From positions 8,269 through 72,268 of the forward strand of contig CAYRTS010000002.1 of the NCBI GenBank assembly GCA_964427285.1: a stretch of 64,000 nucleotides of DNA, in the 5' to 3' direction. Each line of letters begins with the position of its first letter. The first letter of the stretch is position 1. Below the pieces are notes generated by a model that saw only the letters and a list, made by a program, of their open reading frames with translations, had not been told where the DNA came from and ran no database searches. Position numbers and translations under genes: made by a program. Origin of the DNA: an uncultured Anaerolineaceae bacterium (GTDB lineage Bacteria > Chloroflexota > Limnocylindria > Limnocylindrales > CSP1-4). Shown here one piece after another: positions 18,041 to 38,935 of the stretch.

Positions 18041-18951
18041 CCGGAGGTAGCGTCGGGGCAACGGTGAAACCGCTCGCGGATCCGGCTGGCACGCTATTTG
18101 TCGTCTCTACGCCGATCGGCAACCTCGGCGACATCACGTTGCGTGCCATCGAAACCCTGCGGGCCGTCCCACTGATCGCCGCGGAGGACACCCGGCTGAC
18201 CCGGCGGCTGCTCGACCGCCACGCGATCGAGGGGCGAATGACCAGCTTCCACGCCCGGAGCGCGCCCGGCCGCCTGGAGGCCCTGCTGGCGCACCTGCGC
18301 GTTGGAGCCGACCTCGCCGTTGTGACGGATGCGGGCACGCCTGGAGTGAGCGACCCCGGCGCGGATCTCGTGGCCGCGTGGGCTGGGGAGGGCGGCCTGG
18401 TCGTGCCGATCCCCGGGGCTTCGGCGGTGCTGGCTGCGGTCGCGGCGAGCGGCGTGGCCGGTCCGCGCTGGGTCTTTGAAGGATTCCTGCCTCGATCCGG
18501 CCGCGACCGGAGAGCGCGACTGGCGGCCATCGCGGCCGATCCGCGGGGCGCCGTTGTCTACGAGGCGCCCGGCCGCATGGCCGCCACGCTTCGGGACCTG
18601 GCGGCCGCCTGTGGACCGGAACGTCAGGCCGCCGTCTGTCGCGAGCTGACCAAGCTCCACGAAACGGTCGTCCGCGGGTCACTGGGCGACCTGGCCAGCG
18701 CTGCCTCAGTTGGCGAGATCCCGGCCCGCGGGGAGTTCGTGCTGGTGGTTGGGATGGCCGGCGACGACGTGTTGACCGCGGCACGCCTGACCGGTGGCGG
18801 GCCTGATCCGGAGGCCGCGGTGAGCGAGGCCCTGGCCCAGGTGGAACACCTGGTGGCGGATGGGATACCGCGCGGGGAAGCTGCCCGGCAGGTCAGCGCG
18901 GCGACCGGGATCCCTCGTCGCCGACTGTACGAGACGGACGTACGCCGATGA
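18037..18951 (+). CDS. rsmI: 16S rRNA (cytidine1402-2'-O)-methyltransferase
   Basis: The protein contains LFVVSTPIGNLGDITLRAIETLRAVPLIAAEDTRLTRRLL, typical of the RsmI tetrapyrrole-methylase-like fold. Confidence 0.85.
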   Translation: MTGGSVGATVKPLADPAGTLFVVSTPIGNLGDITLRAIETLRAVPLIAAEDTRLTRRLLDRHAIEGRMTSFHARSAPGRLEALLAHLRVGADLAVVTDAGTPGVSDPGADLVAAWAGEGGLVVPIPGASAVLAAVAASGVAGPRWVFEGFLPRSGRDRRARLAAIAADPRGAVVYEAPGRMAATLRDLAAACGPERQAAVCRELTKLHETVVRGSLGDLASAASVGEIPARGEFVLVVGMAGDDVLTAARLTGGGPDPEAAVSEALAQVEHLVADGIPRGEAARQVSAATGIPRRRLYETDVRR

Positions 18952-19679
18952 CGCGAGCGTCGCAGCCAGGACCCGGCCGGGCGCCACGGGCGCCACGGGA
19001 GATGGTGCTCGTGCCCGCCGGTCCCTTCCTGATGGGGAGCGACGAGTTCGAACGCGAGGGACCGCCCCACATGGTGAACCTGCCGGAATTCTGGATGGAC
19101 CGCTTTCCGGTCACAAACGCCGACTACGACACCTTCGTCCGGGAGACCGCACACCGGAGCCCGGTGGATTGGCGCGGTGGTCCGGCGCCGGGCGATCGGC
19201 TCGATCATCCGGCGCAGGTGACGTGGACAGACGCGACCGCCTACACGGCATGGGCCGGGGTCCGACTCCCGACGGAGGCCGAATGGGAGAAGGCCTCGCG
19301 TGGGACGGACGGCCGCCGGTATCCATGGGGCAACACGTGGGACGGCACACGGGCCCTGACCTGGGAGACGTCCGCGGCGACCGGTCAGCGGACCGAGCCT
19401 GTCACGGCTCGCCCCGCTGGCGCCAGCCCGTACGGCTGCGAGCAGATGGTCGGGATGCTGGAGGAGTGGACGGCGGACTGGTATGACGCCTACCCGGGAA
19501 GTCCCTACCGGAGTCTCACCTACGGTGAGCGGGTTCGCGTCCTCCGCGGCGGTGCCTGGCTGTTCACCCAGACCCACGCACGGTGCGCCTATCGCTGCTT
19601 CGAGTTGCCAGACCGGCCACCGGCCGAGATGGAGGTCCTGGGCGCCCCAACCTTTCGATGCGCGATCGACGCGGGATGA
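18948..19679 (+). CDS. formylglycine-generating enzyme (FGE/SUMF1) family domain protein
   Basis: FGE-sulfatase-like motifs are present: MGSDEF, RLPTEAEWEKA, RGGAW. The true start may be the internal MVLVPAG at 19002. Confidence 0.7.
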   Translation: MTRASQPGPGRAPRAPREMVLVPAGPFLMGSDEFEREGPPHMVNLPEFWMDRFPVTNADYDTFVRETAHRSPVDWRGGPAPGDRLDHPAQVTWTDATAYTAWAGVRLPTEAEWEKASRGTDGRRYPWGNTWDGTRALTWETSAATGQRTEPVTARPAGASPYGCEQMVGMLEEWTADWYDAYPGSPYRSLTYGERVRVLRGGAWLFTQTHARCAYRCFELPDRPPAEMEVLGAPTFRCAIDAG

Positions 19680-20383
19680 CCAGCCCGTGGCGCCGAGCCG
19701 CCACCGTCCCGATGATCCTGATCCCCGCCGGCCCGTTCACGATGGGCAGCGACGAATTCGACATGGAGGCGCCGCCACACCTCGTGGAGGTGCCCGCGTT
19801 CCAGATCGACCGATACCCGGTGACGGTGGCGGCCTACACCGAATTCGTGGACGCGACCGGCCATCCGGCCCCCGAGGAGTGGCAGGGCGGCCCGCCGCGC
19901 GACCGGCTCGACCATCCGGTAGACCGGGTCTCCTGGTTCGATGCCGAGGCGTTCGCCGCCTGGGCAGGCAAACGCCTGCCCACCGAGGCGGAATGGGAAA
20001 AGGCGGCCCGTGGCACGGACGCCCGGCGCTGGCCGTGGGGGAACCGTTTCGAGGAGTCCCGCTGCGACGTCTGGGACCACGCCCTCATCCTGGAGATCAC
20101 CACCGTCTCCGTTGACCGGCACCCTGACGGCGCGAGCCCCTATGGAGTGGAGCAGATGGGCGGCAACGTCGAAGAGTGGGTCCGCGATGTGTTCCGCCCG
20201 TATCCCGGCAGCCGGCACGTGTCTGCATCGGCAGACGGTGACTTCCGCGTCCTGCGCGGCGGCTCGTGGTTCTTCACCCAGGAACATGCCCGCTGCGCAT
20301 ACCGGAAGCCCGCGCGCCCGGACTTTACCGGCTGGTCGCAGGCGGGCGGTCCTGGCTTCCGCTGCGCCCAGGACATCGGCTGA
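19676..20383 (+). CDS. FGE/SUMF1 family domain protein (tandem paralog)
   Basis: This is a paralog of the preceding gene (MGSDEF, RLPTEAEWEKA, RGGSW). Its ATG overlaps the upstream stop (ATGA). Confidence 0.7.
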   Translation: MTSPWRRAATVPMILIPAGPFTMGSDEFDMEAPPHLVEVPAFQIDRYPVTVAAYTEFVDATGHPAPEEWQGGPPRDRLDHPVDRVSWFDAEAFAAWAGKRLPTEAEWEKAARGTDARRWPWGNRFEESRCDVWDHALILEITTVSVDRHPDGASPYGVEQMGGNVEEWVRDVFRPYPGSRHVSASADGDFRVLRGGSWFFTQEHARCAYRKPARPDFTGWSQAGGPGFRCAQDIG

Positions 20384-20624
20384 ATCTGCCCGACAGAATC
20401 GCCTCCAGAATCCACTGGCATTTCATTCGGCGAGGCGCTACCGTAGCGCGAAGCGTGGCGACCTCAAGTCATCATGCTGGTGCATCCGGGCCTGCGGTGA
20501 GTGAGCCCAACTCACAGCCGTAACCTCCGGAGTGGGTCGCGATCACCCTGGATGCACGCGAGAGTACGGGCGATCGCGTCCGAGGGTGACGGGACGCCCC
20601 GGCAGTTGGAGGGTTGAGGGAACC

Positions 20625-21326
20625 ATGTCTGTGGCCTCTGTCTCGAGATCCGCGTCGATGCGGATCCCGCTGACGTATGTGGTGACGCTCGTCCCCGTGG
20701 CGGCGGCACTCAACATCGTCGGCGGAACCATCAACACGGCGCTCAAGCTGCCGACCTTCCTGGACATGATCGGGACGGCGGTCGCCGCGATCGTGCTCGG
20801 ACCGTGGTGGGGCGCCCTTGTCGGCGTCATCACCAACGTCGGCGGTTCGTTCATCAACGGGCCGATCGGCATCCCCTTCGCCCTGGCAAACGTCGCCGGA
20901 GCGCTCGTCTGGGGGTATGGCGTTCGCTCATTCCGGATGGGTTCGTCGCTACCGAAGTTCTTCCTGCTCAACGTCATCGTGGCGCTGGCCGTCTCGGCCG
21001 TCGCCGCGCCGATCGTCATCTTCGTGTTCGGTGGGTCGACCGGACACTCATCGGATGCCATCACGGCGGCGTTCGCCCAGGCCGGCAACGACCTGATCAC
21101 GTCGGTGTTCGCCTCGAACGTGATCGTGTCGCTCGCGGACAAGATCATCGCGGGCTTCGTCGGTCTCTCGATCATCGCAGCGCTTCCGGCGAACCTGACA
21201 TCCGGGTTGACCCTGCCCGAGGCCACCGGGATGCGCGGCGTCATGCTCGCGCTCGGCGGCGTCCTCATCGGCGTGGTGCTCGTGCTCGTGTACGTGTTCA
21301 TCCTCGCGCCGGCACCCGCCGCCTGA
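20625..21326 (+). CDS. polytopic membrane protein; candidate ECF transporter substrate-capture (S) component
   Basis: An ATG at 20625 is preceded by GGAGGG. The roughly 234 aa protein has five to six Gly-rich TM helices. It is followed by EcfA1, EcfA2 and EcfT. The substrate is unknown. Confidence 0.55.
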   Translation: MSVASVSRSASMRIPLTYVVTLVPVAAALNIVGGTINTALKLPTFLDMIGTAVAAIVLGPWWGALVGVITNVGGSFINGPIGIPFALANVAGALVWGYGVRSFRMGSSLPKFFLLNVIVALAVSAVAAPIVIFVFGGSTGHSSDAITAAFAQAGNDLITSVFASNVIVSLADKIIAGFVGLSIIAALPANLTSGLTLPEATGMRGVMLALGGVLIGVVLVLVYVFILAPAPAA

Positions 21327-21359
21327 CCCGCCGACCAGACCCGAACCTAGGAGAACGAC

Positions 21360-21587
21360 ATGAGTGGACAAGACTCGAACAACGAACGGACTGTCGGGCC
21401 GCGCGAGGGGCTCGGTGCCGGGATCGTCGCGCTGGGGATCCTGTCGATTGCCCTCCCCGGGGTCGTCGACCAGCTCCCGTCGGTCGCCAACGGCGGCAGT
21501 GCGGCGGCCGTGCTGTACGGCATGAGCGTGTTGATCGGCATCTTCGTGATCATCGCGGGAGTGATGACCTTCGTCGTCAAGGACTGA
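21360..21587 (+). CDS. small membrane protein (2 TM)
   Basis: The 75 aa ORF has two hydrophobic helices and lies between the S-component and the ATPases. It has no recognisable family. Confidence 0.4.
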   Translation: MSGQDSNNERTVGPREGLGAGIVALGILSIALPGVVDQLPSVANGGSAAAVLYGMSVLIGIFVIIAGVMTFVVKD

Positions 21588-21622
21588 CGAACGGCGCCGC
21601 AGCGTCGGCGCTTCGCGATCGA

Positions 21623-21659
21623 CCCCCGCCCCGTCGGCCATTGGTTGCCGGGGCGGGGG
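21623..21659 (+). terminator. GC-rich hairpin between the S/small-TM genes and the ECF ATPases (candidate partial terminator or attenuator)
   Basis: CCCCCGCCCCG-(15 nt loop)-CGGGGCGGGGG is followed by TTCGCAT. Confidence 0.35.
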
Positions 21660-21696
21660 TTCGCATACAACGCAGGTACGTGATCGAGGCTGCACG

Positions 21697-22539
21697 GTGT
21701 CCGACGACCCCATCATCTCCATCTCAGACATGGGCTTTACCTATGCCCAGGGCGCCCGACCGGCCCTCTCGGGGATCAACCTGGAGATCGCCCGCGGCGA
21801 GTACGTGGCCGTCATGGGCCTCAACGGCGCCGGCAAGACCACGCTCGGTCTCTGCCTGAACGGGATCATTCCGCACATGCTGATGGGTGAGCAGACCGGC
21901 CAGGTCCGCGTCGATGGCAAGGACCCGGGCATCGTGGTGGTGCGTGAGATGGCCCGGACCGTCGGGATCGTCTTTGACAATCCGGAGTTCCAGATGAGCC
22001 AGATCACCGCCGCTGAGGAAGTGGCGCTCGGGCTCGAGAATCTTGGCGTTCCAGCGGAGGAGATGCCCGAGCGCATCGCCGCAGCGCTTCGACTGGTGGG
22101 CCTCGACGGCTTCGAGGAGCGCGCTCCGATGGGGCTGTCGGGCGGGCAGCAGCAGCGGTTGGCGATCGCCGCCGTCCTGGTCATGCGTCCGTCCATCCTG
22201 TTCATGGATGAGCCGACGTCGAACCTGGATCCGCTGGGCAAGGATGAGATCTTCGAGATCGCCCGGCATCTCAACCGAGAGGAGGGGATGACCGTGATCG
22301 TCGCCGAGCACGAAGTGGAGGTCCTGGCCGAGTACGCCGACCGGATCGTCGTCCTCCACGAGGGTCGGATTGCGATGCAGGGGACGCCGGCGGAGGTGCT
22401 GAGCCGCGTGGCGGAGCTCGATGCGCTGGGTTTGCGGACGCCCCAGGTGACGGAGTTCGCCCATGCCCTGTCAGGCGCGTCCGCGGACCTCCCGGTCACG
22501 ATGGATGGCACGCTGCGCTGGCTGGAGGCCCGGGCATGA
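21697..22539 (+). CDS. ecfA1: energy-coupling factor transporter ATPase
   Basis: The protein has Walker A GLNGAGKTT, the signature LSGGQQQRLAIA, and Walker B LFMDEPTSNLD. Confidence 0.85.
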   Translation: MSDDPIISISDMGFTYAQGARPALSGINLEIARGEYVAVMGLNGAGKTTLGLCLNGIIPHMLMGEQTGQVRVDGKDPGIVVVREMARTVGIVFDNPEFQMSQITAAEEVALGLENLGVPAEEMPERIAAALRLVGLDGFEERAPMGLSGGQQQRLAIAAVLVMRPSILFMDEPTSNLDPLGKDEIFEIARHLNREEGMTVIVAEHEVEVLAEYADRIVVLHEGRIAMQGTPAEVLSRVAELDALGLRTPQVTEFAHALSGASADLPVTMDGTLRWLEARA

Positions 22540-23357
22540 CCGGCGGCGCGTCCATCATCAGCGTCCAGGAGGCGCGTTACGTCTACAAGCACGGCAACGT
22601 CGTCGCGCTGGAGGGACTGTCGGTCGAGATTGCCGCGGGCGAGCTCGTTGGGGTGATGGGCCAGAACGGCTCTGGCAAGACGACGCTCACGAAACTGCTG
22701 AACGGGCTCCTGAAGCCGACCTCGGGCCGGGTGATCGTCGACGGACGGGATACGGCCCAGCACACGGTGCAGGCGATGGCGGCGCACATCGGCTATGTCT
22801 TCCAGAACCCGAATCACCAGCTGTTCGCGACCACCGTGGCTGAAGAGCTGGCCTTTGGACCGCGCAACATCGGCTGCCCGCCCGCCGACGTCGAGGAGCG
22901 CGTGGCGGAGGCGGTCGAATTCTTCGGGCTCCGCGAGATCCTCGCGCTCCATCCGTATCGAATCAGCTTCCCGCTGCGCAAGCTGGTCGGGATCGCCTCG
23001 ATCTTCACGATGCGGCCGAAGGTGTTCATCCTCGATGAGCCGACGACCGGCCAGGACCATCGAACCACCAGCGTGATCGACCGCCTGATCGTGCGCCTCG
23101 CGGAGCGCGGGGACACCGTCCTCTGCGTCTCCCATGACATGCCGCTCATCGCCCACGTGGCGCAGCGGGCGTTGGTGATGTGGAACGGAGAGTTGATCGC
23201 GGACGGCACCCCGCGCGAGGTCTTCGCGGACAAGGCCGTGATGGATCGAACCCATCTCACGCCACCGCAGGTCACCCGGCTGTCGATGCGAATGCCCGGG
23301 CGGGCTGGCCGTCCCGCCGCCTTGTCGGTCGCCGAACTGGTCGCGGAGTCGCGCTGA
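22536..23357 (+). CDS. ecfA2: energy-coupling factor transporter ATPase
   Basis: The protein has Walker A GQNGSGKTT and Walker B LDEPTTGQD. It overlaps the previous gene by 4 nt. Confidence 0.85.
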   Translation: MTGGASIISVQEARYVYKHGNVVALEGLSVEIAAGELVGVMGQNGSGKTTLTKLLNGLLKPTSGRVIVDGRDTAQHTVQAMAAHIGYVFQNPNHQLFATTVAEELAFGPRNIGCPPADVEERVAEAVEFFGLREILALHPYRISFPLRKLVGIASIFTMRPKVFILDEPTTGQDHRTTSVIDRLIVRLAERGDTVLCVSHDMPLIAHVAQRALVMWNGELIADGTPREVFADKAVMDRTHLTPPQVTRLSMRMPGRAGRPAALSVAELVAESR

Positions 23358-24250
23358 TGCAGGGCGTCAATGTGTCGGTCACGCACGTTCGCGGGACCTC
23401 CTGGCTCCACCGGCTCAACCCCATCTCCAAGCTGGCCTGGCTGCTGGCGGTCACGCTGTTTGCCTTTGCCTCGTACAACCCGATCCCGCTCTTCCTGATC
23501 GCCATCGCCGGGCTGGTCCTGGGCACCACGGCCGGGATTCTCAAGCCGCTGATGCGGATCCTCGTGGTCTTTGCGCCCCTGACGGCGTCGATGATCGTGA
23601 TCCAGACGATCGCCCCGGCCATCTGCGGCGATGCCTGCACGGCGGTGGTCCAGCTGGGTCCGTTCACGCTCTACCAGGAGGGGATGTCGCACGGCCTCTC
23701 GCTGGTTTCCCGCGTCCTGTCCATGGAGATCGTCGCGCTGGGCGTGCTGATGACGACCCATCCGTCGGACCTGTTCGCCTCCTTTGCCAAGCTCCGGGTT
23801 CCGTACATCCTCAACTTCATGGTCTCGATGACGCTCCAGCTCATTCCGGTCCTCCAGCGCGAGGTCTCGGTTGTGCTCTCGGCGCAGAAATCGCGTGGGA
23901 TGAAGAGCCGGGGGTTCGGTTCCATCGTTCCATCATTCGTTCCCGTCTTCGCCGGCGCCTTCGAGCGTGTGCAACAGCTCTCGATCAGCCTGGAGTCGCG
24001 CGCCTTTGGCTCGGCCGGTCTCAAGACCTCGTATCGCCAGGTCCGATTTGGCCCGGTGGACGCTGCGATCGCCATCCTCGGGCTGGCGGTTGGGGCCGTC
24101 GGCGTCTACGTCGGCCTGACGTTGTGGAGTGCTGACCTGACACCTTCCGTGGTTCTGCCGGTCGCAGTCATGCTGGCAATCTTCCTCCTCTCGGCGGTCC
24201 TGTTCATCGGCGTGCTCGCGGCGGCGATCCTGGCCATCGCCCGGTCCTGA
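23357..24250 (+). CDS. ecfT: energy-coupling factor transporter transmembrane (T) component, CbiQ family
   Basis: An ATG at 23357 overlaps the ecfA2 stop (TGATG). The MQGVNVSVTHVRGTSWLHRLNPISKLAW N-terminus is typical of EcfT/CbiQ. Confidence 0.8.
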   Translation: MQGVNVSVTHVRGTSWLHRLNPISKLAWLLAVTLFAFASYNPIPLFLIAIAGLVLGTTAGILKPLMRILVVFAPLTASMIVIQTIAPAICGDACTAVVQLGPFTLYQEGMSHGLSLVSRVLSMEIVALGVLMTTHPSDLFASFAKLRVPYILNFMVSMTLQLIPVLQREVSVVLSAQKSRGMKSRGFGSIVPSFVPVFAGAFERVQQLSISLESRAFGSAGLKTSYRQVRFGPVDAAIAILGLAVGAVGVYVGLTLWSADLTPSVVLPVAVMLAIFLLSAVLFIGVLAAAILAIARS

Positions 24251-24261
24251 GCTGTCCCGCC

Positions 24262-25095
24262 GTGGCCGCGATGGACCCGAGCCCGACCGAGCCCCAGCAT
24301 CACATCGCCCTGCGCCGGGGCGATGTTGGGCGCTACGTCCTGCTGCCCGGCGATCCCGGTCGTGTGGAGGTCATCGCCCGGCACTTCGATGACCCGGTCT
24401 TTGTGGCCACCAATCGTGAGTTCGTGACCTGGACGGGGACCCTGGACGGCGTTCCCGTTGCCTGTACTTCTACCGGGATCGGCTGCCCGTCGACCGCGAT
24501 TGCCGTTGAGGAGCTTGTGGCCATCGGCGCCGACACGTTTATCCGGGTCGGCACCTCGGGCGCGATCCAGCCGGACATCGTCACCGGTGAGCTGGGGGTC
24601 ATCACCGGGGCGATCCGCGATGAGGGGACGAGCCACCAGTATCTGCCGCCGGAGTATCCGGCCGTCGCCGACATTGACGTGACGGCGGCGCTGCGGGCGG
24701 GCGCACTGGCGAGTGGCCACACGTTCCGGCTCGGGATCGCGCAGTCCAAGGATTCGTTCTTCGGCCAGCACGCACCCGATCGGATGCCGGTGGGGCCGGA
24801 GCTGCACCGGCGCTGGGCGGCCTGGATCGCTGGCGGTGCGATCTGCTCGGAGATGGAAGCCGCCGCGCTGTATATCGTGGCCGCGACCCTTCGCGTTCGC
24901 GCCGGCGGGGTGATGCTGATCTTCGGCGACCTTGGCGGTCGACCGATGACGCCCGAGGAGCAGATCGCGGGCGATATCGAGCGGGTGATCGAGGCGTCGA
25001 TCGCGGGCCTCCGGATCCTCATCGCCGAGGATGTCGCGCGGGATCGGGAGCTTGCGGGTGCCCGGGGCGCCGGGAGCGAGCGGGTGGCGGGATGA
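24262..25095 (+). CDS. uridine phosphorylase-like nucleoside phosphorylase (PNP/UDP family 1)
   Basis: The protein aligns closely with E. coli Udp: LLPGDPGRVE, REFVTWTG, STGIGCPSTAIAVEEL, RVGTSGAIQP, SEMEAAAL. Confidence 0.8.
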   Translation: MAAMDPSPTEPQHHIALRRGDVGRYVLLPGDPGRVEVIARHFDDPVFVATNREFVTWTGTLDGVPVACTSTGIGCPSTAIAVEELVAIGADTFIRVGTSGAIQPDIVTGELGVITGAIRDEGTSHQYLPPEYPAVADIDVTAALRAGALASGHTFRLGIAQSKDSFFGQHAPDRMPVGPELHRRWAAWIAGGAICSEMEAAALYIVAATLRVRAGGVMLIFGDLGGRPMTPEEQIAGDIERVIEASIAGLRILIAEDVARDRELAGARGAGSERVAG

Positions 25096-25958
25096 CCGAC
25101 GACGTGATGCACCACATCGCCCTCCGCCGCGGCGATGTGGGCCGGTACGTGCTGCTGCCCGGGGACCCCGGACGCTGCGAACGGATTGCGCGCCACTTCG
25201 ACGACGCGCGCCTGGTCGCCCGCAATCGCGAATACGAAACGTGGACCGGGTCGCTGGACGGCGTCCGGGTGTCGGTCACCTCGACCGGAATAGGCTGCCC
25301 GTCGACCGCCATCGCGGTGGAGGAGCTGCTCCAATGCGGCGCGGACACGTTTATCCGGGTCGGGACCGCCGGTGGGATGCAGCCGGGGATGGTGACCGGC
25401 GAACTGGCCAACGTGACGGCGGCGATCCGCGACGAGGGCACCACGAGCCACTACCTGCCCATGGCCTTTCCGGCGATTGCGGATCTTGACGTCGTCCTCG
25501 CCCTGCGTGAGGCGGCTCGCCGCACGGGAGCCCGCGTGCGCGAAGGCGTCAGCCAGTCGAAGGATTCGTTCTACGGCGAGATCGAGCCTGGGCGGATGCC
25601 GCTGCGCGAACGACTCGAGGAGCGCTGGGCCGCGTTCATCGCCGGTGGTGCCATCTGCTCGGAGATGGAAGCCGCCGCGATCTTCATCATCGCCTCCATC
25701 CATCGAGCTCGCTCCGGCGGGATCATGGCCTGTGTCGGCAATCCGGACATGACGGAGGGGGAGGTCGCCGCGTCTATGGCCGGTTTCGATCTCGACGAGG
25801 TCATTGCGACCGCGGTCGAAGGGCTGCGGGTGCTGATCGAGCGTGACGGGGCGGCCGGGGCGTCCGGGTCGGCCGGGGCGGCCGAGCGCGGTGCGATTGC
25901 CGGGCGCGGCGCGACAGCGAAGCGGCTCGCTGGTCCGTCGGTCTCACCCTCTCGCTAA
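25092..25958 (+). CDS. uridine phosphorylase-like nucleoside phosphorylase (tandem paralog)
   Basis: This is a paralog of the previous gene with the same motifs. It overlaps that gene by 4 nt. Confidence 0.8.
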   Translation: MTDDVMHHIALRRGDVGRYVLLPGDPGRCERIARHFDDARLVARNREYETWTGSLDGVRVSVTSTGIGCPSTAIAVEELLQCGADTFIRVGTAGGMQPGMVTGELANVTAAIRDEGTTSHYLPMAFPAIADLDVVLALREAARRTGARVREGVSQSKDSFYGEIEPGRMPLRERLEERWAAFIAGGAICSEMEAAAIFIIASIHRARSGGIMACVGNPDMTEGEVAASMAGFDLDEVIATAVEGLRVLIERDGAAGASGSAGAAERGAIAGRGATAKRLAGPSVSPSR

Positions 25959-25960
25959 TC

Positions 25961-27202
25961 GTGGATGCCGATCTGGAGATCCCGTTCAACCCGGTGGACC
26001 CGCGGTTCATCGCCAATCCCTACCCGGCCTATGAGCGGGTTCGCGAGTCCGGCGCCGTCTGGCATCCCGAAGGCGATCACCTCTGGTACCTGACCCGCCA
26101 TGCGGACGTCCATTCCGCCTTCCGCGACCGTCGACTCGGGACGAACTTCCTGCATCGGTACACCCCCGAGGAGCTAGGCCTCGCGCCCGGAATCCCGGTC
26201 TGGCGCGATCCGCGCTGGCAGGACTTCGCCGCCTTCGAGCGCTGGGAACTCCTGAATCTCGAACCCCCGGTGCACACCCGTCTGCGTCGCCTCGTGACCG
26301 AGGCGTTCACGCCACGGAGCATCGAGGGGCTGCGCCTCGACATCTTCGGGCGGGCTCGGGCGCTGTTGGAGCCCGGCCGCCAGGCTGGATCGATCGACCT
26401 CGTCAACGACTATGCGCAGCAGTTCTCGCTCGGCATCATCTGCGACCTCATCGGCGTGGCGCCGGCGGATCGGGAGACCATCAAGCGCCTGTCCGATGAC
26501 ACCGTGGCGATGTACGAGCCGGCCCCATCGGAGGCCCAGCGGATCGCGTCCGATACCGCCGCCGGGGATTTTCGTCGGTATCTGCTCGACGTGGTCGCCA
26601 TCCGCCGCCGGACTCCCGCCGCCGACCTGCTGACCGCACTTCTCGATGCGACGGTCGAGGGTGAGCGCCTCAGCGACGACCAGATCGTGTCCACGGCGAT
26701 GGTCCTGCTGATGGCCGGGCATGAAGCCACGGTCAACGCCACGACCAACGGGATTGCCGCGCTGGCGGCGCATCCGGACGAGTGGCAGCGGATCCGCCGG
26801 GGGGAGATCTCGCCACGCGCGGCGATCGAGGAGATCCTGCGCTTCGATCCGCCGCTCCAGTGGTTCGAGCGCTGGGTGCTTGACGCCGGGTTCAGCGTGG
26901 ACGGCATCGAGATCCCGGTCGGGTCGCGGGTGGCCCTGGTGCTGGCCGCGGCCAACCGCGACCCACGGCGCTGGGCCGACCCGGACCGGTTCGACATTCG
27001 GCGTGCTGACGCGGGCCATCTGTCGCTCGGTGGCGGCATCCACTTCTGCATCGGCGCGCCACTGGCCCGGATGGAGCTCGAGGCGACCCTCACCGAGCTG
27101 GCGCGCACGGAGGCGGAGCTGGTCATCCTTCCACCGACGGTGCGTCGGCCCACCTTCCAGTTCCGGGGCTACGAGCGGCTCGAGATCGCGCTGACCAACT
27201 GA
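25961..27202 (+). CDS. cytochrome P450
   Basis: The protein has the heme-binding loop FGGGIHFCIGAPLAR, an EILRF (ExxR) motif, and an AGHEAT I-helix. It starts 3 nt after the preceding stop. Confidence 0.9.
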   Translation: MDADLEIPFNPVDPRFIANPYPAYERVRESGAVWHPEGDHLWYLTRHADVHSAFRDRRLGTNFLHRYTPEELGLAPGIPVWRDPRWQDFAAFERWELLNLEPPVHTRLRRLVTEAFTPRSIEGLRLDIFGRARALLEPGRQAGSIDLVNDYAQQFSLGIICDLIGVAPADRETIKRLSDDTVAMYEPAPSEAQRIASDTAAGDFRRYLLDVVAIRRRTPAADLLTALLDATVEGERLSDDQIVSTAMVLLMAGHEATVNATTNGIAALAAHPDEWQRIRRGEISPRAAIEEILRFDPPLQWFERWVLDAGFSVDGIEIPVGSRVALVLAAANRDPRRWADPDRFDIRRADAGHLSLGGGIHFCIGAPLARMELEATLTELARTEAELVILPPTVRRPTFQFRGYERLEIALTN

Positions 27203-27210
27203 CCCGGGGC

Positions 27211-27270
27211 GGTCGCCCCCCGGTACCTCCGGTCGCCCCCCGGTACCTCCGGTCGCCCCCCGGTACCTCC
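27211..27270. repeat. perfect 3 x 20-bp tandem repeat (GGTCGCCCCCCGGTACCTCC)
   Basis: This is a direct tandem repeat in the convergent intergenic region between the P450 and the MFS gene. A fourth partial unit follows. Confidence 0.9.
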
Positions 27271-27307
27271 GGTGCCGATTTCCGCGGTCGGGGTTGGACT
27301 GGCGGCT

Positions 27308-28528
27308 TTAGGCCGGCATCGCCCGGGTCCGCCATCGCCCGCGAAGGTCGGTGACGATCGCCACGATCGCTGCGAGCACGCCGAGCGGGATGACGATCAG
27401 CCGCGCGGCGTCGGCCCCGAACACCGTCACCGCCGACCCGGCCAGCGCCGCGCCGGCCGCGATCCCAAGGGCCGTTGCCGACACGAGCAGCGAAAACGAC
27501 GATGTCCGGGAGTGGCCGGGGGTGATCTCCGCAACGTACGCATTCGACTGGATGAATGTCGGGGCGATCGCGGCACCGGCGAGCGCAGCCGCCACGACAA
27601 ACGGGGCGTAGCCACCAACCAGGGCCATGGGCAGGACGCCCGCGGCGTAGACGACCATCGAGATCGTGAATCGTCGACGAGCTGGGGTCCGCCACGTCCG
27701 GGCCCCGACGAGGATGGCGCCGACGAGGCTCGCACCCGAATTGACGAAGAAGACCAGCGCAGCCCCTTCCGGGACCCCGATCGCCGCGGAGTACGCCAGC
27801 TGGAGGACCTGCACGGCACCCAGGGCCCCACCAAGACAAGCGACCGACACGAGGACGCCCGGACCCGCCGGGAAGCGTGGCCGCCAGCCGGTGATTCCAT
27901 CGCCATGCGGGTGCGGAGCCGGAGCCGGCAGGCTCCAGCGCGAGGTGATCCCCCACACGCCGATCAAGCCCAGGCCCATGGCCACGACAATGGGGAGTCC
28001 GGCGAACCAGGCCGTGGCCAGGATCGCCACCGCGGACGGCCCGATCAGGAACGAGAGCTCGTCGTTGATCGATTCCAGCGCCTGTGCCGAGGCGAGTCGT
28101 CCTTCGCGGTCGTCGAGCGCTGCCCAACGAGCTCGCGTGAACGCTCCGGTGTTCGGCAGCACAGCGCCGACCATGGCCGCGAGCAACACGTATAGCGGTG
28201 TCACCCCAATCGTCAACAGGCTGACCACGGCGAGCGCCGCGGCCGCGGTCGCGACGACCGAAAGCAGACGGGCCAGTGGAAGCTGCCCCCGCCGGTCTGC
28301 GATCCGCCCGATCGCGGGGCCAACGACCGCGGTCGCGACGGCCATCGCCCCCGCCGCAAGCCCACCAAAGGCGTAGCCGGTCTCCGGATCCACTGCCGCG
28401 GCCGCGGCCACGAAGGCGACCGACAGCATGGACATCGGCGCTCGGCCGATGAGTCCGAACCCGATGAGGGTCTTGCCGCCGGGCTGATCCAGCGGCCCGG
28501 CAAAGCCGGCAAGGAGTCGGGGCATCAA
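27308..28528 (-). CDS. MFS transporter
   Basis: The 406 aa ORF has about 12 TM helices and MFS-type loops (GRIADRRG). Confidence 0.8.
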   Translation of the reverse strand: MMPRLLAGFAGPLDQPGGKTLIGFGLIGRAPMSMLSVAFVAAAAAVDPETGYAFGGLAAGAMAVATAVVGPAIGRIADRRGQLPLARLLSVVATAAAALAVVSLLTIGVTPLYVLLAAMVGAVLPNTGAFTRARWAALDDREGRLASAQALESINDELSFLIGPSAVAILATAWFAGLPIVVAMGLGLIGVWGITSRWSLPAPAPHPHGDGITGWRPRFPAGPGVLVSVACLGGALGAVQVLQLAYSAAIGVPEGAALVFFVNSGASLVGAILVGARTWRTPARRRFTISMVVYAAGVLPMALVGGYAPFVVAAALAGAAIAPTFIQSNAYVAEITPGHSRTSSFSLLVSATALGIAAGAALAGSAVTVFGADAARLIVIPLGVLAAIVAIVTDLRGRWRTRAMPA

Positions 28529-28537
28529 CCCAACCCC

Positions 28538-29533
28538 TCAGTACATCGTCGTCCGGGTCAGGTGATGCGGCCAGAACGTCGCGTGGTAGGTCTTCCACAG
28601 CCGGTAGTCCACCTGCGGGATCACCAGCTGCTTGTCGGCCGGGCGCAGTTCGTTGATGGCGTTCGTGAGAAGCGCCGTCGCGTAGATCGTGTGGGCGCGC
28701 AATTCGATCTCGTCCGGGCTGTCTCGCGGGATCATGACCCCGCTGTTGATCCTGGCCTCGAGATCCGGGGTGTACTCGGTGATGCCCATGAGGCGCAACG
28801 CGACCGGGACGATGTAGTCGGCAAAGGCCGTCGCGCGCGAGAGGTCCCGAAGGCCGGTTTGACCGAGACGCACGTAGACCGCGTGGAGCGACCAAAGGCT
28901 GAGTTGGGCCAGCTTGTAGAACTGGACCCGGTGGCCGTCATAGGTGCTGCTGTCCTCGAACCGCGGGAAGTCGGCGAGGAGGCGTTCCAGCATCCCGTTA
29001 CCATCGGCGTAGAGCGCGCGCTCGCAGCCGTTGGCCCAGACGTGGAACCGACCATTGAACCGCGCCACCAGCGTTGCGCCGATCTCGTTGAGGATCGCGA
29101 CCCGCTCGTCGAGCATCGGCATCTCGATGGTGCCGTCGAACAGCCGCGCGAGGTCCGCCCGTGTCACCGACGCCATCCACGAGCCCTCGAGGATCGGCTC
29201 CCCGGCCTTGAACGCCCGGTGAACGCAGGCCAGCATGGCCTCCGAATCGACGTAGCGGGTGCCGTTGTAGTCGGCCTCGAACTTGACCGACGTATCGAAA
29301 TCGGTGAACGCAAAATTGAGGGCTGATTCCAGCATGACGAGATCCGTCAGCACGTCCGGGTCATGTCCGAAGTCGAACAGGAACGATCCGTCTGGAAGCC
29401 CGAATTCCTCGTACGCCATCCAGCCGGCGACCCGCCGAATCCCATCCTGCGAGGTGCGGACGTTCCGGGACGCCTCGATCACCGGCAACGTGGACGACAG
29501 GACCTGGCTATCCCAATGGTCGATCGGGTGCAT
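28538..29533 (-). CDS. queuosine-salvage family protein (DUF2419; Qng1/C9orf64-like queuosine 5'-phosphate N-glycosylase family)
   Basis: An internal ATG (MHPIDHWDSQ...) is chosen as the start. The protein has the length and conserved blocks of the Q_salvage family: FDFGHDPDVLTDLVMLESALNFAF, HRVQFYKLAQLSLW, DYRLWK. It lies directly upstream of, and co-directional with, the MFS gene. Confidence 0.65.
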   Translation of the reverse strand: MHPIDHWDSQVLSSTLPVIEASRNVRTSQDGIRRVAGWMAYEEFGLPDGSFLFDFGHDPDVLTDLVMLESALNFAFTDFDTSVKFEADYNGTRYVDSEAMLACVHRAFKAGEPILEGSWMASVTRADLARLFDGTIEMPMLDERVAILNEIGATLVARFNGRFHVWANGCERALYADGNGMLERLLADFPRFEDSSTYDGHRVQFYKLAQLSLWSLHAVYVRLGQTGLRDLSRATAFADYIVPVALRLMGITEYTPDLEARINSGVMIPRDSPDEIELRAHTIYATALLTNAINELRPADKQLVIPQVDYRLWKTYHATFWPHHLTRTTMY

Positions 29534-29751
29534 GCACTCTCCCTGCAGGCCGGACCGCCGGCCACTCCGGGCCGTCGGGAGACCCGACGACGGCGCAACG
29601 ATACGGGAGCGAGTGGCCAAGCGCCGGGTCAGCAGCCCGGACACGCCCGTGCTGGTTCCAGGCGGACACGCCTCCACGCGGTTTGCGCGGGGTCACTGGC
29701 CGGCCTCACCATGTTGGTCCACGCTTGATCGGTTGCAGGAGGACTGGACTG

Positions 29752-30687
29752 GTGGATCGCCCGGGGATCGTCGTGGTCGGCAGCACCATGATCGATCTGG
29801 TCGCGTACGCCGATCGACTGCCGGGTGACGGCGAGACGGTCGTCGGTAGTGGTTTCCGGTCCGGGTTCGGGGGCAAGGGCGCCAACCAGGCGGTCATGGC
29901 CGCGCGCTTCGGGGCCGCGGTCGCGATGGTCAACGCGGTCGGCGACGACGACTACGGAACGGCGACGCTCGCCAACCTCGCGGGGGAGGGGATCGCCACG
30001 GAGTACGTGGTTCGCGTCCCTGGCTCCTCGGGCGTCGCCCCGATCTGGGTCGATGGGAACGGGTCCAACCGGATCATCATCGTCCCGGGGGCGAACCTCC
30101 ACGTGCCTGCTGCGCTGGCCGTTAACGCGGTTGAGCGGCTCCGGCCCGCCGTCGTGATCGGGCAATTCGAGATTCCGCAGGCAGTGACGGCGGCCGGGTT
30201 CGCGGCGGCGAGGCGCGTTGGCGCGGCGACGATCCTCAATCCGGCCCCGGGAGCCTCCATTGACCCGGAGCTGCTGGCAGTAACGGACTGGCTGGTCCCC
30301 AACGAAACCGAGTTCGCGATCATCGCCGGCGAATCGTTGGGCAGCGACCCGGCGGACGAGGCCGAACGGATCGTGGCGTTTGGCCGCCGAGTCGGGGTCT
30401 CGCTCGCCGTCACGCTTGGCGAGCGGGGAGTCGCGCTCCTGACCGGAGGCGGGCCGCTTATTCGGATCCCGGCACCGGCCGTCAGACCTGTCGACACGAC
30501 TGGGGCAGGCGACGCGTTCGTTGGCGCGTTTGCGGTCGGGCTGGCGATGGGCAGGACCCCAGAGTCGGCCGCTCGCCTGGGCTGTGCGGCAGCATCGGAC
30601 AGTGTGACCCGGCCGGGGACGCAGGCCTCGTACGCCGACCCAGCGGGCGCGGCCGCCCTCCTCGCGGCCACGGCGACTGCGGTTTGA
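29752..30687 (+). CDS. rbsK: ribokinase (PfkB family)
   Basis: The protein has IVVVGSTMIDLV and GGKGANQAV near the N-terminus and a DTTGAGDAFVGAF anion hole near the C-terminus. A GTG start is chosen at 29752; the ORF could instead begin at the ATG at 29683. Confidence 0.7.
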   Translation: MDRPGIVVVGSTMIDLVAYADRLPGDGETVVGSGFRSGFGGKGANQAVMAARFGAAVAMVNAVGDDDYGTATLANLAGEGIATEYVVRVPGSSGVAPIWVDGNGSNRIIIVPGANLHVPAALAVNAVERLRPAVVIGQFEIPQAVTAAGFAAARRVGAATILNPAPGASIDPELLAVTDWLVPNETEFAIIAGESLGSDPADEAERIVAFGRRVGVSLAVTLGERGVALLTGGGPLIRIPAPAVRPVDTTGAGDAFVGAFAVGLAMGRTPESAARLGCAAASDSVTRPGTQASYADPAGAAALLAATATAV

Positions 30688-34600: not shown

Positions 34601-34808
34601 GGCCCAGCGATCACGCGCGACGGGCGGCCGATCGGCGCTGCTATACTCCGGCCCTCCTCAGAACGCGCGGGCGAGCCCGTCAACCAGGAGGTCAGCGATC
34701 GCGCTTACAGGGCGCATCGGTCGTCCCGTGAGGCGCCCGAGCGACCAGTCGACAGCGATCCGCCGAACGCTCGGTGGGTCCACGAGGGAGTGGTCTACCC
34801 GGTTCCCG

Positions 34809-34833
34809 GGCCCCCAGGCGAGGGGCCTTTTTT
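34809..34833 (+). terminator. hairpin plus T6 intrinsic terminator inside the purA 5' leader (attenuator candidate)
   Basis: GGCCCC-caggcga-GGGGCC-TTTTTT lies 46 nt upstream of the purA start. No + strand gene lies upstream, only a candidate -10 TATACT at 34642. Confidence 0.5.
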
Positions 34834-34879
34834 CATGGTCCCGGACGCGGCGCGCAAATCGCGCAGGAGACGCGTCCTG

Positions 34880-36220
34880 ATGCCGGCCACCGTGATCGTC
34901 GGGCTCCAGTGGGGCGACGAGGGCAAGGGCAAGATGACGGACTTCCTGGCCGAGGGGGTGGCCATGGTCGTCCGCTACCAGGGTGGCGACAACGCCGGAC
35001 ACACCGTGGTCAAGGGTGACGAGGTCTTCAAGCTCCGCCTGACGCCGTCGGGCGTGCTTTACCCGCACATCACGTCGGTGATCGGCAACGGCGTCGTGGT
35101 CAACCCGGTCACCCTGATCGACGAGCTGGACATGCTCGCCGCGCGTGGCATCGACGTCGCCCGCGTCCGCGTGAGCCGCAGCTCGCACGTGATCATGCCG
35201 TACCACGTGGCCCTGGACGTCGGCAACGAGCTCCGCCTGGGCGACGCAAAGGTGGGCACGACCGGGCGCGGGATCGGGCCGACGTATGGCGATCGGGCCT
35301 GGCGGATCGGCCTGCGCATGGAGGACCTCCTCGACCCGGCGATCCTGCGCGAACGGATCGGCCGTGCGCTGCCCGACAAGAACCTCCTGCTCGAGGCGAT
35401 GGGCTGCCCAACCTTTGAAGTCGAACCTCTGGTCGTGATGGCGGCGACCTGGGGCGAACGCCTCCGCCCCCATCTTGATGACACTACGTGGCTGGTCCAG
35501 GGCGCCCTCGCCCGTGGGGAGCACGTGCTCCTGGAAGGTGCCCAGGGGACGCTCCTGGATCTCGATCACGGGAGCTACCCGTTCGTGACGTCATCGAATC
35601 CGGTCGCCGGCGGCGCCTGCACCGGCGGGGGGATCGGGCCGCTCCAGGTGGACGAGGTGATCGGGGTCATCAAGGCCTACTCAACCCGGGTCGGCTCCGG
35701 ACCCTATCCGACCGAGCTGCACGACGAGATCGGGGCCGGGATCGCCTCGCGCGGCCACGAATTCGGGACGGTCACGGGGCGGCCGCGGCGGGTCGGCTGG
35801 CTGGACGTGGTGCCGCTGCGCTATGCCGTCGCCGTCAACAGCGTCAGTTCGATCACCCTCAACAAGCTCGACATCCTCTCTGGCATCGAAACCATTCGCG
35901 TGTGCGTTGCCTACGACCTTGACGGTCAACGGGTCGAAACCTGGCCATCGAGCGGCGCCTCGCTCGCCCGGGCCACCCCGATCTACGAGGACTTCCCAGG
36001 CTGGAACGAGCCGATCCACGATGTCCGGTCGCTGGCCGACCTGCCCGAGAACGCCCGGCGTTACGTCACCGCCATCGAGACCCACGCGGGCGTCCCGATC
36101 ATCTTCGTATCCGTCGGCCCGGAGCGAACCCAGACGATCGAGCGGGCCTGGCGGCCGATGCGGGGACGGTCCGGCCTCGCCGGCGGGATGTCCGGCGGGC
36201 AGCCCGGGGGGGTCGGGTGA
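34880..36220 (+). CDS. purA: adenylosuccinate synthetase
   Basis: The N-terminus is MPATVIVGLQWGDEGKGKMTD, the canonical PurA P-loop start. The ORF is full length. Confidence 0.9.
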   Translation: MPATVIVGLQWGDEGKGKMTDFLAEGVAMVVRYQGGDNAGHTVVKGDEVFKLRLTPSGVLYPHITSVIGNGVVVNPVTLIDELDMLAARGIDVARVRVSRSSHVIMPYHVALDVGNELRLGDAKVGTTGRGIGPTYGDRAWRIGLRMEDLLDPAILRERIGRALPDKNLLLEAMGCPTFEVEPLVVMAATWGERLRPHLDDTTWLVQGALARGEHVLLEGAQGTLLDLDHGSYPFVTSSNPVAGGACTGGGIGPLQVDEVIGVIKAYSTRVGSGPYPTELHDEIGAGIASRGHEFGTVTGRPRRVGWLDVVPLRYAVAVNSVSSITLNKLDILSGIETIRVCVAYDLDGQRVETWPSSGASLARATPIYEDFPGWNEPIHDVRSLADLPENARRYVTAIETHAGVPIIFVSVGPERTQTIERAWRPMRGRSGLAGGMSGGQPGGVG

Positions 36221-37620: not shown

Positions 37621-37630
37621 GGCGGGCCAC

Positions 37631-38935
37631 ATGATCCGTCGCTACACACTCCCTGAGATGGGCGCGATCTGGTCCGACCAGGCTCGCTTCGAGGCCATGC
37701 TGCGCGTGGAACTGGCGGTCGCGCGAGTGCAGACAGCCCGGGGAGCGATCCCGCAGTCGGCCCTGACCGCCCTCGAATCGCGCGCCCGCGTCGATATCGA
37801 TCGCATCGCCGAGATCGAGCGGACGACCGACCACGACGTGATCGCGTTTGTCAGCCAGATCGCCGAAACGGTCGGACCTGAGGGGCGGTTCCTCCACATG
37901 GGCCTGACCAGCAGCGATGTGGTCGACACCGCCCTCGCGCTCCAGCTTCGGGCGGCCGGAAAACGGCTGCTGCTCGATGCCGACGGGCTTCTCGGCGCGG
38001 TCGTCGCCCGCGCACGGGCCGAGGCGGACACGGTGATGATGGGGCGAACACATTCGGTGCATGCGGAGCCGACGACACTTGGTCTCAAGCTGGCCGGCTG
38101 GGCATTCGAAGTTGATCGGGGCCGGATGCGCCTCGCGGCCGCCGTGGACGAGATCGGAACGGGCAAGATTTCCGGGCCTGTTGGCACCTACTCCCACCTG
38201 GCCCCCGATGTCGAGACGGAGGTCCTGGCGGCCCTCGGGCTGCATGCGGATCCGGTGAGCACGCAGATCGTCCAACGCGACCGGCACGCGGCGCTGCTCA
38301 CGGCGATCGCGATCCTGGGCGGTTCGCTGGAGCGTTTTGCGACGGAGGTCCGCAACCTCCAGCACTCCGAGATCGGCGAGCTCCAGGAGCCGTTCAAGCC
38401 GGGCCAGAAGGGCTCGTCCGCAATGCCCCACAAGCGCAACCCCATCCTGTCCGAGCGGATCGCCGGTCTGGCCAGGCTCCTGCGCGGCTACGCCCACACC
38501 GCGCTCGAGGACCAGCCGCTCTGGCACGAGCGAGACATCAGCCATAGCAGCGCCGAGCGGGTGATCCTGCCCGACGCGACGATCGTGCTGGACTACATGC
38601 TGGTGCGCATGGCGGGGCTCGTCGAGGGGCTGGTGGTCCGGCCCGATCGAATGCGCGAGAACATCGAGCGCGGCTACGGCCTGCATGCCTCGTCGCGGGT
38701 GCTGAGCCTCCTGATCGAGTCGGGTCTCGCGCGCGACGATGCCTACGCGATCGTCCAGCGCGCGGCGTTGCGAGCGGCGGACGATCGGGTGCCGCTGCGC
38801 GGGCTGCTGGCGATCGATGCCACCGTCGCCCAGCGGGTGCCCCTGGCAACGCTGGACGCCTGTTTTGACGACACGGCGTTCCTGGCCCACGTGCCGCAGG
38901 TGATGGCGCGCCTGGATCGACTCAATGCTCGCTGA
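37631..38935 (+). CDS. purB: adenylosuccinate lyase
   Basis: The N-terminus is MIRRYTLPEMGAIWSDQARFEAMLRVE. The fumarate-lyase signature GSSAMPHKRNP is present. Confidence 0.9.
   Translation: MIRRYTLPEMGAIWSDQARFEAMLRVELAVARVQTARGAIPQSALTALESRARVDIDRIAEIERTTDHDVIAFVSQIAETVGPEGRFLHMGLTSSDVVDTALALQLRAAGKRLLLDADGLLGAVVARARAEADTVMMGRTHSVHAEPTTLGLKLAGWAFEVDRGRMRLAAAVDEIGTGKISGPVGTYSHLAPDVETEVLAALGLHADPVSTQIVQRDRHAALLTAIAILGGSLERFATEVRNLQHSEIGELQEPFKPGQKGSSAMPHKRNPILSERIAGLARLLRGYAHTALEDQPLWHERDISHSSAERVILPDATIVLDYMLVRMAGLVEGLVVRPDRMRENIERGYGLHASSRVLSLLIESGLARDDAYAIVQRAALRAADDRVPLRGLLAIDATVAQRVPLATLDACFDDTAFLAHVPQVMARLDRLNAR

Follow-up and report, generated by a model that had tools for sequence, protein, structure and literature searches.

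What would a bacterium do with a dedicated energy-coupling factor (ECF) importer, two uridine phosphorylase (UP) paralogs and a cytochrome P450, all encoded in one run of genes that faces a Qng1-fold N-glycosidase, a major facilitator superfamily (MFS) transporter and a ribokinase? This island lies at positions 20384 to 30687 of a 64,000-nt stretch of DNA (the window; ~68% G+C) from contig CAYRTS010000002.1 of an uncultured member of the Chloroflexota. A sequence-only reading had taken it for a locus that imports and degrades a nucleoside, and had brought in queuosine salvage by way of the glycosidase. The general claim is supported by gene context conserved in three phyla, across which the same families recur in rearranged orders, placing the arrangement far beyond chance. 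On balance, the island probably serves ribonucleoside scavenging and catabolism, by means of two modules that are also found separately.

Module A comprises the ECF importer and the two phosphorylases (UPa and UPb). Module B comprises the glycosidase (called Qsal-like here, and Qsal in gene orders) and a ribokinase of the PfkB family, often accompanied by an MFS transporter. Genes were delimited by GC3-guided open reading frame (ORF) calling and profile searches against Pfam and NCBIfam, and the gene identities observed bear out all of the families, orders and strands named beforehand. With >< marking convergent and <> divergent neighbors, the window arrangement is ECF-UPa-UPb-P450><MFS-Qsal<>PfkB. 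Overall, ~170 related loci were compared with it.

The Qng1-fold glycosidase

The gene at 28538..29533 (minus strand) encodes a member of PF10343 (Q_salvage/DUF2419; E 2e-51). Its product aligned over its full length with the Qng1 protein of S. thermophilus (StQng1; 7UK3, E 3e-42), and human QNG1 was aligned as well. We tabulated residues for the window protein, 10 close homologs, 109 family representatives and StQng1, using StQng1 numbering and the residue roles published by Hung et al. 2023 (PMC9881137), in which changing D69, D207 or K233 to Ala was detrimental to the function of StQng1. The core of the enzyme is kept: K199, D231, Y232, N72, F75, E267, D298, W302, H316 and the C-terminal Tyr are all present, the protein ending in TTMY. 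These include the catalytic Lys199 and Asp231 of the helix-hairpin-helix (HhH) fold, which align, and the entire ribose site (the carboxylate of the C-terminal Tyr323, E267 and H316). The 7-deazaguanine anchor is likewise retained as D298, the stacking W302 and an aliphatic L203.

The cyclopentenediol pocket of StQng1 (P46, W48, H53, Y93, W94 and W299) reads P, G, D, S, E and Y in the window protein, and the replacement holds subfamily-wide. From the D69-N72-D207 relay, which is tied to the queuosine side-chain amine, N72 is kept and D69 is a serine; across the subfamily, position 69 is S, A or G and position 207 is S, T or M. The 5′-phosphate site (R80, K233, Q306) reads K80, I233, which is invariant within the motif AFADYIVP, and H306. 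Changed residues thus include W48G, H53D, D69S, Y93S, W94E, A/S206W (a new Trp), D207S, K233I and Q306H. The subfamily is set apart by score, its full-length representatives reaching at least 287 bits and other full-length family members at most 208, and the canonical Qng1-like representatives in the same table retain the published residues. A scan with the subfamily alignment, limited to one genome per species, matched at least 432 genome loci.

PF10343 as a whole (representatives P0241-P0390) splits into at least three residue-signature clades: the canonical one (D69/Y93/W94/D207/K233), that of the window (S/A69, S93, W206, S/T207, I233, H306) and a third large clade (N69, A93, M207), which also does not have the queuine-pocket pattern.

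The retained core together with the lost pocket points to a Qng1-fold glycosidase that still reads the edge of a guanine-like base and is not built for queuine. Judging from these residues, the window enzyme probably does not hold a 5′-phosphate, and it probably acts on a nucleoside other than queuosine. The label of queuosine salvage, or Qng1-like, given to the protein in the sequence-only reading is consequently not supported, as the queuine pocket, the D69/D207 relay and the K233/Q306 ligands are replaced throughout the subfamily. By the yardstick that the sequence-only reading set for itself, loss of the conserved Q_salvage catalytic residues, that reading is refuted by half, with D231, K199 and N72 still present and D69 and D207 gone.

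Salvage of queuosine or a related 7-deazaguanine is nonetheless the rival explanation that survives best, and we regard it as unlikely. In such a pathway the ECF importer and/or the MFS transporter would bring in queuosine, queuine or the ribosides of preQ1 or preQ0, the PfkB protein would phosphorylate the nucleoside, and the DUF2419 protein would free the base for tRNA-guanine transglycosylase. PF10343 membership, the intact catalytic core and base anchoring by D298 and W302 all agree with it, as do reports that Qng1-family genes cluster with MFS genes and PF12822 S components and that an unexpected preQ0/preQ1 transporter adjoins a qng1 gene (PMC11130926). Gut Actinomycetota encode the bacterial transglycosylase (bTGT) and are predicted to salvage queuine (PMC11130926); the objection that Actinobacteria lack queuosine was dropped in view of that source, by which the gut Actinomycetota probably do salvage queuine. 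In addition, the kinase that makes queuosine 5′-monophosphate is still missing (PMC9881137), and the PfkB family includes nucleoside kinases. The subfamily-wide loss of W48, H53, Y93, W94, D69/D207 and K233/Q306 argues against queuosine salvage. So do an S component that matches no QueT or QrtT profile, a PfkB protein with the motifs of a ribokinase, whose closest match is the human ribokinase, and neighbors given over to general nucleoside catabolism, namely UP, inosine-uridine nucleoside hydrolase (IUNH), adenosine deaminase, DeoC-like aldolase and a PnrA-type ATP-binding cassette (ABC) importer. No tgt or que gene was found among the window genes scanned or in the annotated neighborhoods.

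The ribokinase and the conserved neighborhoods of module B

The MFS transporter gene (27308..28528, minus strand; PF07690 E 9e-14; many hydrophobic segments) adjoins the glycosidase gene, and the ribokinase gene is divergent from it (29752(29683)..30687, plus strand; PF00294 E 3e-59). An AGGAGG Shine-Dalgarno sequence 9 nt 5′ of GTG 29752 makes this the probable PfkB start. The closest structures to the PfkB protein are ribokinases (human 2FV7, E 5e-52), and GGKGANQ, the Glu of QFEIP, NETE and DTTGAGD are all conserved. Such a partner fits a glycosidase that frees ribose, which in turn fits the missing phosphate ligands.

Neighborhoods were surveyed by tblastn with window and reference proteins in the best 80 of the at least 432 Qsal-like loci, from Chloroflexota, Acidimicrobiia, acI/Actinomycetes and a few other groups; many contigs are short, and the counts are lower bounds. 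Of the 80 loci, 50 have a ribokinase-like PfkB gene next to the Qsal-like gene or in its vicinity; this co-conservation and the ribokinase motifs both agree with the sequence-only reading. UP or IUNH genes occur in 41, MFS genes in 34, PnrA/Bmp-type ABC importers in 30, LacI regulators in 16 and ECF genes in 10. Co-conservation of DUF2419 with an MFS transporter, and the linkage of a P450 (19 loci, acI Actinomycetota included), both belong to the sequence-only reading and both recur. In the acI loci with a full ±10 kb, of which there are five, PfkB, MFS, Bmp ABC, UP and IUNH are every one present.

The Acidimicrobiia architecture is PfkB<>LacI-Bmp ABC-Qsal-MFS-IUNH, as in L018. The substrate-binding protein of the ABC importer is PnrA-like (PF02608). 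The acI islands contain this set plus UP(GE[VI])-UP(GQH), further IUNH genes, a DeoC-like aldolase, an aldehyde dehydrogenase, a P450, an adenosine deaminase (by Pfam) and a nucleoside 2-deoxyribosyltransferase (NDT)-like gene. A 153-aa ORF of the latter family lies antisense between the Qsal-like and MFS genes of acI islands (L073:10993-11454, minus strand). One Chloroflexota metagenome-assembled genome (MAG; L016/L008) has PfkB<>LacI-Qsal-ECF-UPa-UPb-MFS, and Limnocylindrus has P450-UPb-ECF<>Qsal-MFS><IUNH-UPa-PfkB. The LacI proteins of L016/L008 and L018 are 62% identical, and the importer in the same slot differs: the ECF importer of Chloroflexota occupies the place held by the PnrA/Bmp ABC importer in other phyla.

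Acidimicrobiia that live as sponge symbionts pair the Qsal-like gene with a divergently oriented gene of PF02578 (Cu-oxidase_4; YfiH/FAMIN family; L071:9139-9918 and equivalents in L074-L093), and a dCTP deaminase lies nearby.

These arrangements also bear on whether the island is one system at all. It could be two unrelated neighbors, an ECF-UP-UP(-P450) operon for pyrimidine nucleosides and a glycosidase-MFS-ribokinase unit with an unconnected substrate, an explanation that we find quite unlikely. It draws on the fact that most loci centered on the S component do not have Qsal, MFS or P450 genes and that most Qsal-centered loci do not have ECF genes, and on the convergent and divergent orientation of the window units, which are not co-transcribed. 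Against it speak L008/L016 and L101, in which one LacI gene precedes Qsal, ECF, UPa and UPb on a common strand, joined in L016 by MFS. So do Limnocylindrus, where S and Qsal diverge from one shared intergenic region and UPa sits beside PfkB, and the Bmp-type importer that stands in a single strand run with Qsal-MFS-IUNH.

The phosphorylase pair

UPa (24271..25095, plus strand, with an alternative GTG start at 24262; PNP_UDP_1, PF01048 E 8e-35) and UPb (25092..25958, plus strand; PF01048 E 3e-37) are both of the UP-2 (S. pyogenes) type, UPb being a variant paralog. UPa scores 278.6 bits against TIGR01718, for which the cutoff is 280.3, and carries a canonical site, SKDSFFGQH. Its best structure is 3QPB (S. 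pyogenes UP, E 5e-76), with the Lys/Gln/His triad aligned. UPb finds the same best structure (E 2.5e-72), and its site reads SKDSFYGEI, so that Lys is kept, Gln is replaced by Glu and His by Ile. In the S. pyogenes enzyme (SpUP) we take Lys162, Gln168 and His169 to be the residues that contact uracil, and Tran and coworkers are said to have found in 2011 that His169 mutants lose activity. Every pair examined, whether from Chloroflexota, acI or metagenome loci, shows a conserved GE[VIL] signature. These substitutions suggest that the base specificity of UPb is probably altered relative to UPa. It is possible that UPa and UPb form a hetero-oligomer.

To view module A from its importer, a metagenome scan with the S-component alignment yielded 80 loci, of which 27 were informative in having at least 900 nt after EcfT. 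A UP gene follows EcfT in 25 of the 27, within 200 nt in 23, and where the contig fits two UP genes, the first is of the GQH type and the last of the GE[VI] type. These ECF-UP loci span 38-71% G+C, and some add PfkB and IUNH genes. The proposed co-conservation of the ECF S component with the Udp pair is therefore strongly upheld, and ECF-UP-UP can be regarded as a conserved unit in its own right, because so many of the informative loci carry a UP gene after EcfT.

Variations on the unit were also seen. In L106 and L135, a ribokinase-like PfkB gene directly follows EcfT, with no phosphorylase or P450 between. In some low-G+C metagenome loci (L157, L160, L175 and L152), EcfT is followed by a set of three UP paralogs, and the second of these has a further type of site, for example GQM.

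The ECF importer and the structure of the forward run

The S (substrate-capture) component is encoded at 20625..21326 (plus strand) and has ~6-7 hydrophobic segments. It matches PF12822 (E 1.6e-4) and, over model positions 2-172 of 174, NF045596, the CD3073 family of ECF S components (E 2e-32), with 112.2 bits against a curated cutoff of 180. A weak match to FolT structures and a weak FolT-family profile hit were the only others; in the Pfam and NCBIfam searches, no match to QueT or QrtT models was obtained. By profile score the protein is thus a relative of the CD3073 family and not an equivalog. Further downstream on the same strand are EcfA1 (21697..22539; PF00005 E 3e-27, TIGR04520 ECF_ATPase_1 E 1e-75), EcfA2 (22536..23357; PF00005 E 2e-28, TIGR04521 ECF_ATPase_2 E 3e-68) and the transmembrane coupling component EcfT (23357..24250; PF02361 CbiQ E 8.5e-28). 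With PF12822, two PF00005 domains and PF02361 in the order S-small-A1-A2-T, this is a dedicated (group I) ECF system, and the suspected S-like protein proves to be an ECF component in a dedicated S-A-A′-T set. By analogy with the PnrA/Bmp importers, the CD3073-type S component is predicted to have nucleoside specificity.

Between the S gene and EcfA1 lies the gene for a small protein of 75 aa (21360..21587, plus strand) with two hydrophobic segments, predicted to be membrane helices (2-TM), and with no Pfam match. A gene of 66-78 aa holds the same position in L001, L005, L007, L008, L009, L095 and L096, and tblastn found the protein in many S-centered loci at 32-82% identity.

The forward run, which had been counted as nine genes, contains eight. 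It had been described as packed with gaps or overlaps of 0-4 nt. This is true of EcfA1/EcfA2 (−4 nt), EcfA2/EcfT (−1 nt), UPa/UPb (−4 nt) and UPb/P450 (+2 nt), and three junctions are wider: 33 nt between the S and small genes, 109 nt between the small gene and EcfA1, and 11-20 nt between EcfT and UPa. The 1-nt overlap of the EcfT start with the EcfA2 stop agrees with the gene calls in L001. A single fused operon was also too strong a description, given the 109-nt gap and the hairpin in it.

That hairpin is G+C-rich (21622..21660, plus strand; 12+5 bp stem), and the 113-nt region around it folds at z = −3.4. Four relatives carry hairpins of 11-16 bp, of different sequence, at this junction (L005:10955-11055, L008:10955-11050, L015:17620-17760 and L017:9725-9838). 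Across five loci, the window included, the element is therefore conserved in structure and not in sequence. The terminator scan does not call it, and a T tract is absent. It may act as an intra-operon attenuator or an mRNA-stabilizing element, and its position suggests that the S and small genes are perhaps expressed differently from the remaining genes.

The cytochrome P450

The P450 gene (25961..27202, plus strand; PF00067 E 4e-24) encodes an enzyme with intact AGHEAT (I-helix), EEILR (ExxR) and HFCIGAPLA (heme-thiolate loop) motifs. Its best structure is CYP107P2 of S. avermitilis (8YHN; 323 bits, against 208 for the next), and the P450 of the acI island finds the same structure best (343 bits against 235). 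CYP107P2 is an orphan enzyme for which only monoterpene binding has been shown, while a relative dealkylates 7-ethoxycoumarin (PMC11214959).

Trimmed versions of the locus exist at the same syntenic site in sister Limnocylindria. In L095, L096 and L007 the order is ECF-P450-PfkB, the P450 stop overlapping the PfkB start in L095 and lying 1 nt from it in L096. In L014 it is RsmI-P450><Qsal<>PfkB. These variants tie the P450 to the ribokinase and the glycosidase, and not solely to the phosphorylases. The P450 is accordingly best described, from its shifting placement beside UPb, PfkB or Qsal, as a lineage-variable accessory oxidase. We favor for it an oxidative removal of a modification, which would regenerate ribose or a standard nucleoside. 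A literature search for P450s acting on 2′-O-methyl nucleosides returned nothing relevant, and 2′-O-demethylation has so far been ascribed to 2-oxoglutarate (2OG) oxygenases (PMC12709175).

Intergenic regions and flanking genes

The 241-nt intergenic leader 5′ of the S gene (20384..20624, plus strand) is conserved with respect to the sister loci L001, L005 and L006 and not L008, that is, in close relatives only. A riboswitch in this leader was considered and rejected: no Rfam family matched at gathering or E-value thresholds, and its fold (z = −1.15) is no better than that of shuffled sequences. Scans for sigma-70 promoters and intrinsic terminators gave nothing above shuffle expectation, and no sigma-70 consensus was found in the stretch from which the glycosidase and ribokinase genes diverge and where their promoters would lie (29534..29751). 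The S<>Qsal intergenic region of Limnocylindrus/Aquidulcis contains a promoter-like box, TTGACA-N17-TAACCT (L024, L038, L041, L042, L046 and L049, at ~9700-10000), and a leader hairpin that is conserved, has GCGTTGT as its loop and seems to show compensatory changes.

Between the convergent P450 and MFS genes, in the gap that separates their stop codons, there is a perfect 20-nt tandem repeat (27210..27273; unit CGGTCGCCCCCCGGTACCTC, 3.2 copies; Tandem Repeats Finder (TRF) score 128, 100% matches).

Upstream of the island the window encodes two oligopeptide ABC systems, CN-hydrolase, NadE, RsmI and two ORFs resembling formylglycine-generating enzyme (FGE)-sulfatase; downstream are a Na/Ca exchanger, SSB and a de novo purine biosynthesis cluster. 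The two upstream ORFs (18948-20383), tandem and FGE-sulfatase/EgtB-C-like, lie between RsmI and the ECF genes, a slot that in the sister locus L005 (7025-9726) holds a 621-aa PfkB-PNP_UDP_1 fusion and another PNP_UDP_1 gene. The purine cluster (34790-48250: purA, purD, purB, purC, purS, purQ, purF, purM) begins ~4 kb 3′ of the island and includes a 747-aa PurN-MGS-PurH fusion. Close homologs come from MAGs named as Chloroflexota, Candidatus Limnocylindria or “Chloroflexia.”

Nucleoside phosphorylases can cleave nicotinamide riboside, and CN_hydrolase-NadE-RsmI lies immediately upstream in the window, L005, L007, L014, L095 and L096, with a gap to the S gene of merely 10-26 nt in the last two. 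Salvage of NAD precursors (nicotinamide or nicotinate riboside), in which the ECF system would import the riboside, the phosphorylases would free the pyridine base, and NadE and CN-hydrolase would complete NAD synthesis, is nevertheless very improbable. We rejected it as lineage-specific, since only a single Limnocylindria lineage has the NadE synteny, RsmI shows that the stretch mixes unrelated functions, and NAD genes are missing from many other contexts in which the ECF-UP-UP operon and the Qsal-PfkB pair are found.

Proposed function of the island

From the observed residue patterns and neighborhoods, we infer the following substrates and directions of transport for the favored ribonucleoside scavenging pathway. 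In module A, the dedicated ECF system (S, small 2-TM protein, EcfA1, EcfA2 and EcfT) would import ribonucleosides and pass them to the two UP-2-type phosphorylases. UPa would act as an ordinary uridine phosphorylase and UPb would take another base, both releasing base and ribose-1-phosphate. In module B, the glycosidase would hydrolyze a guanine-type, perhaps modified, nucleoside to base and free ribose, and the divergent ribokinase would turn the ribose into ribose-5-phosphate. The adjacent MFS transporter would move base or nucleoside, by base efflux or by nucleoside/base uptake.

Several observations weigh against this proposal. Modules A and B are mostly found apart, so that their being neighbors in Chloroflexota may come down to common regulation or to convenience, and not to a single pathway. 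K80 and H306 of the glycosidase could still bind phosphate, making a nucleotide substrate possible, and the bTGT and queuine salvage reported for gut Actinomycetota (PMC11130926) make a 7-deazaguanine substrate possible. The PfkB protein scores 268.6 bits against TIGR02152, below the cutoff of 299.65, and the S component is likewise below its NCBIfam curated cutoff, while a literature search on CD3073 yielded nothing relevant and no known substrate. Neither a ferredoxin nor a reductase was found among the genes of the locus or its immediate flanks. A LacI regulator is absent from the window, in which no operator or riboswitch was identified.

A more specific possibility, which we advance tentatively, is that the island is a dedicated route for modified ribonucleosides from RNA turnover that ordinary salvage handles poorly. 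Here the Qng1-fold enzyme would act on modified (methylated or small 7-substituted) guanosines and the GE[VIL] phosphorylase on a non-uracil pyrimidine, and demodification by the P450 would feed the ribokinase. The P450 may then catalyze, for example, 2′-O-demethylation or 5-deoxyribose hydroxylation, with the ribokinase translationally coupled to it. In a further variant, the PfkB protein may be a nucleoside kinase that makes the 5′-monophosphate, paralleling the missing kinase of the Qng1 pathway.

Clusters for nucleoside uptake and catabolism are already well known. Literature searches on ECF systems with uridine phosphorylase and on PF10343 subfamilies returned nothing relevant, and no paper describing an ECF-UP-UP operon was found. 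As far as the searchable literature shows, then, four elements are undescribed: the non-queuosine Qng1 subfamily, the ECF-UP-UP operon, the ordered GQH/GE[VIL] pair and the recurrent CYP107P-like P450.

Many of the loci that match the Qsal-like subfamily come from bacteria abundant in fresh water, soil, sludge and sponges (Limnocylindria, acI/Planktophila, Microthrix, Acidimicrobiia). The public label “queuosine salvage protein” carried by some members is probably wrong, because of both the residue pattern and the gene context, and this affects reconstructions of which organisms make or use queuosine. The locus also predicts nucleosides as a new substrate class for an uncharacterized ECF S family and a new specificity among UP-2 enzymes, and it would for the first time place the orphan CYP107P P450s in a physiological setting. 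Nucleoside scavenging is of consequence for the ecology of streamlined aquatic bacteria.

Comparison with known systems

The S. pyogenes UP (3QPB, UP-2) is the best structural match of both paralogs, and UPa keeps its Lys...Gln-His arrangement. UPb differs from it in having Glu followed by Ile, Val or Leu in place of Gln-His, and the two types form an ordered pair. The Qng1/QNG1 proteins (StQng1 7UK3/7U91; human 7UGK) share with the window glycosidase the Pfam family, the HhH fold, a full-length alignment and the conserved core, including the C-terminal Tyr, which contributes its carboxylate to complete the active site. They differ at the changed residues described above, and the partners of the window-type enzyme are a ribokinase and general nucleoside catabolic genes rather than tgt. 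CYP107P2 (8YHN) is by far the closest solved P450 for the window and acI enzymes; the window enzyme, unlike it, is embedded among nucleoside and ribose genes.

At the level of whole loci, the queuosine locus of C. difficile (QrtT, the nucleoside hydrolase QueK, and QueL; PMC11130926, PMC9881137) resembles the island in coupling an ECF-type importer to a nucleoside-cleaving enzyme, and members of the IU-nucleoside-hydrolase family stand beside the Qsal-like gene in many relatives. The window system differs in that its S component is of the CD3073 type, its ECF system is dedicated (S, A, A′ and T in one locus) and nucleoside cleavage falls to UP-2 phosphorylases; the annotated neighborhoods showed no QueL-like gene. 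A further parallel is provided by the PnrA/Bmp nucleoside ABC importers under LacI control. Chloroflexota have an ECF importer in their stead, and the window locus has no LacI gene. In Acidimicrobiia and acI, those importers hold the same position beside Qsal-MFS-IUNH/UP and a ribokinase, behind a homologous LacI, and by this analogy the window locus appears to work like the PnrA/Bmp-LacI nucleoside operons.

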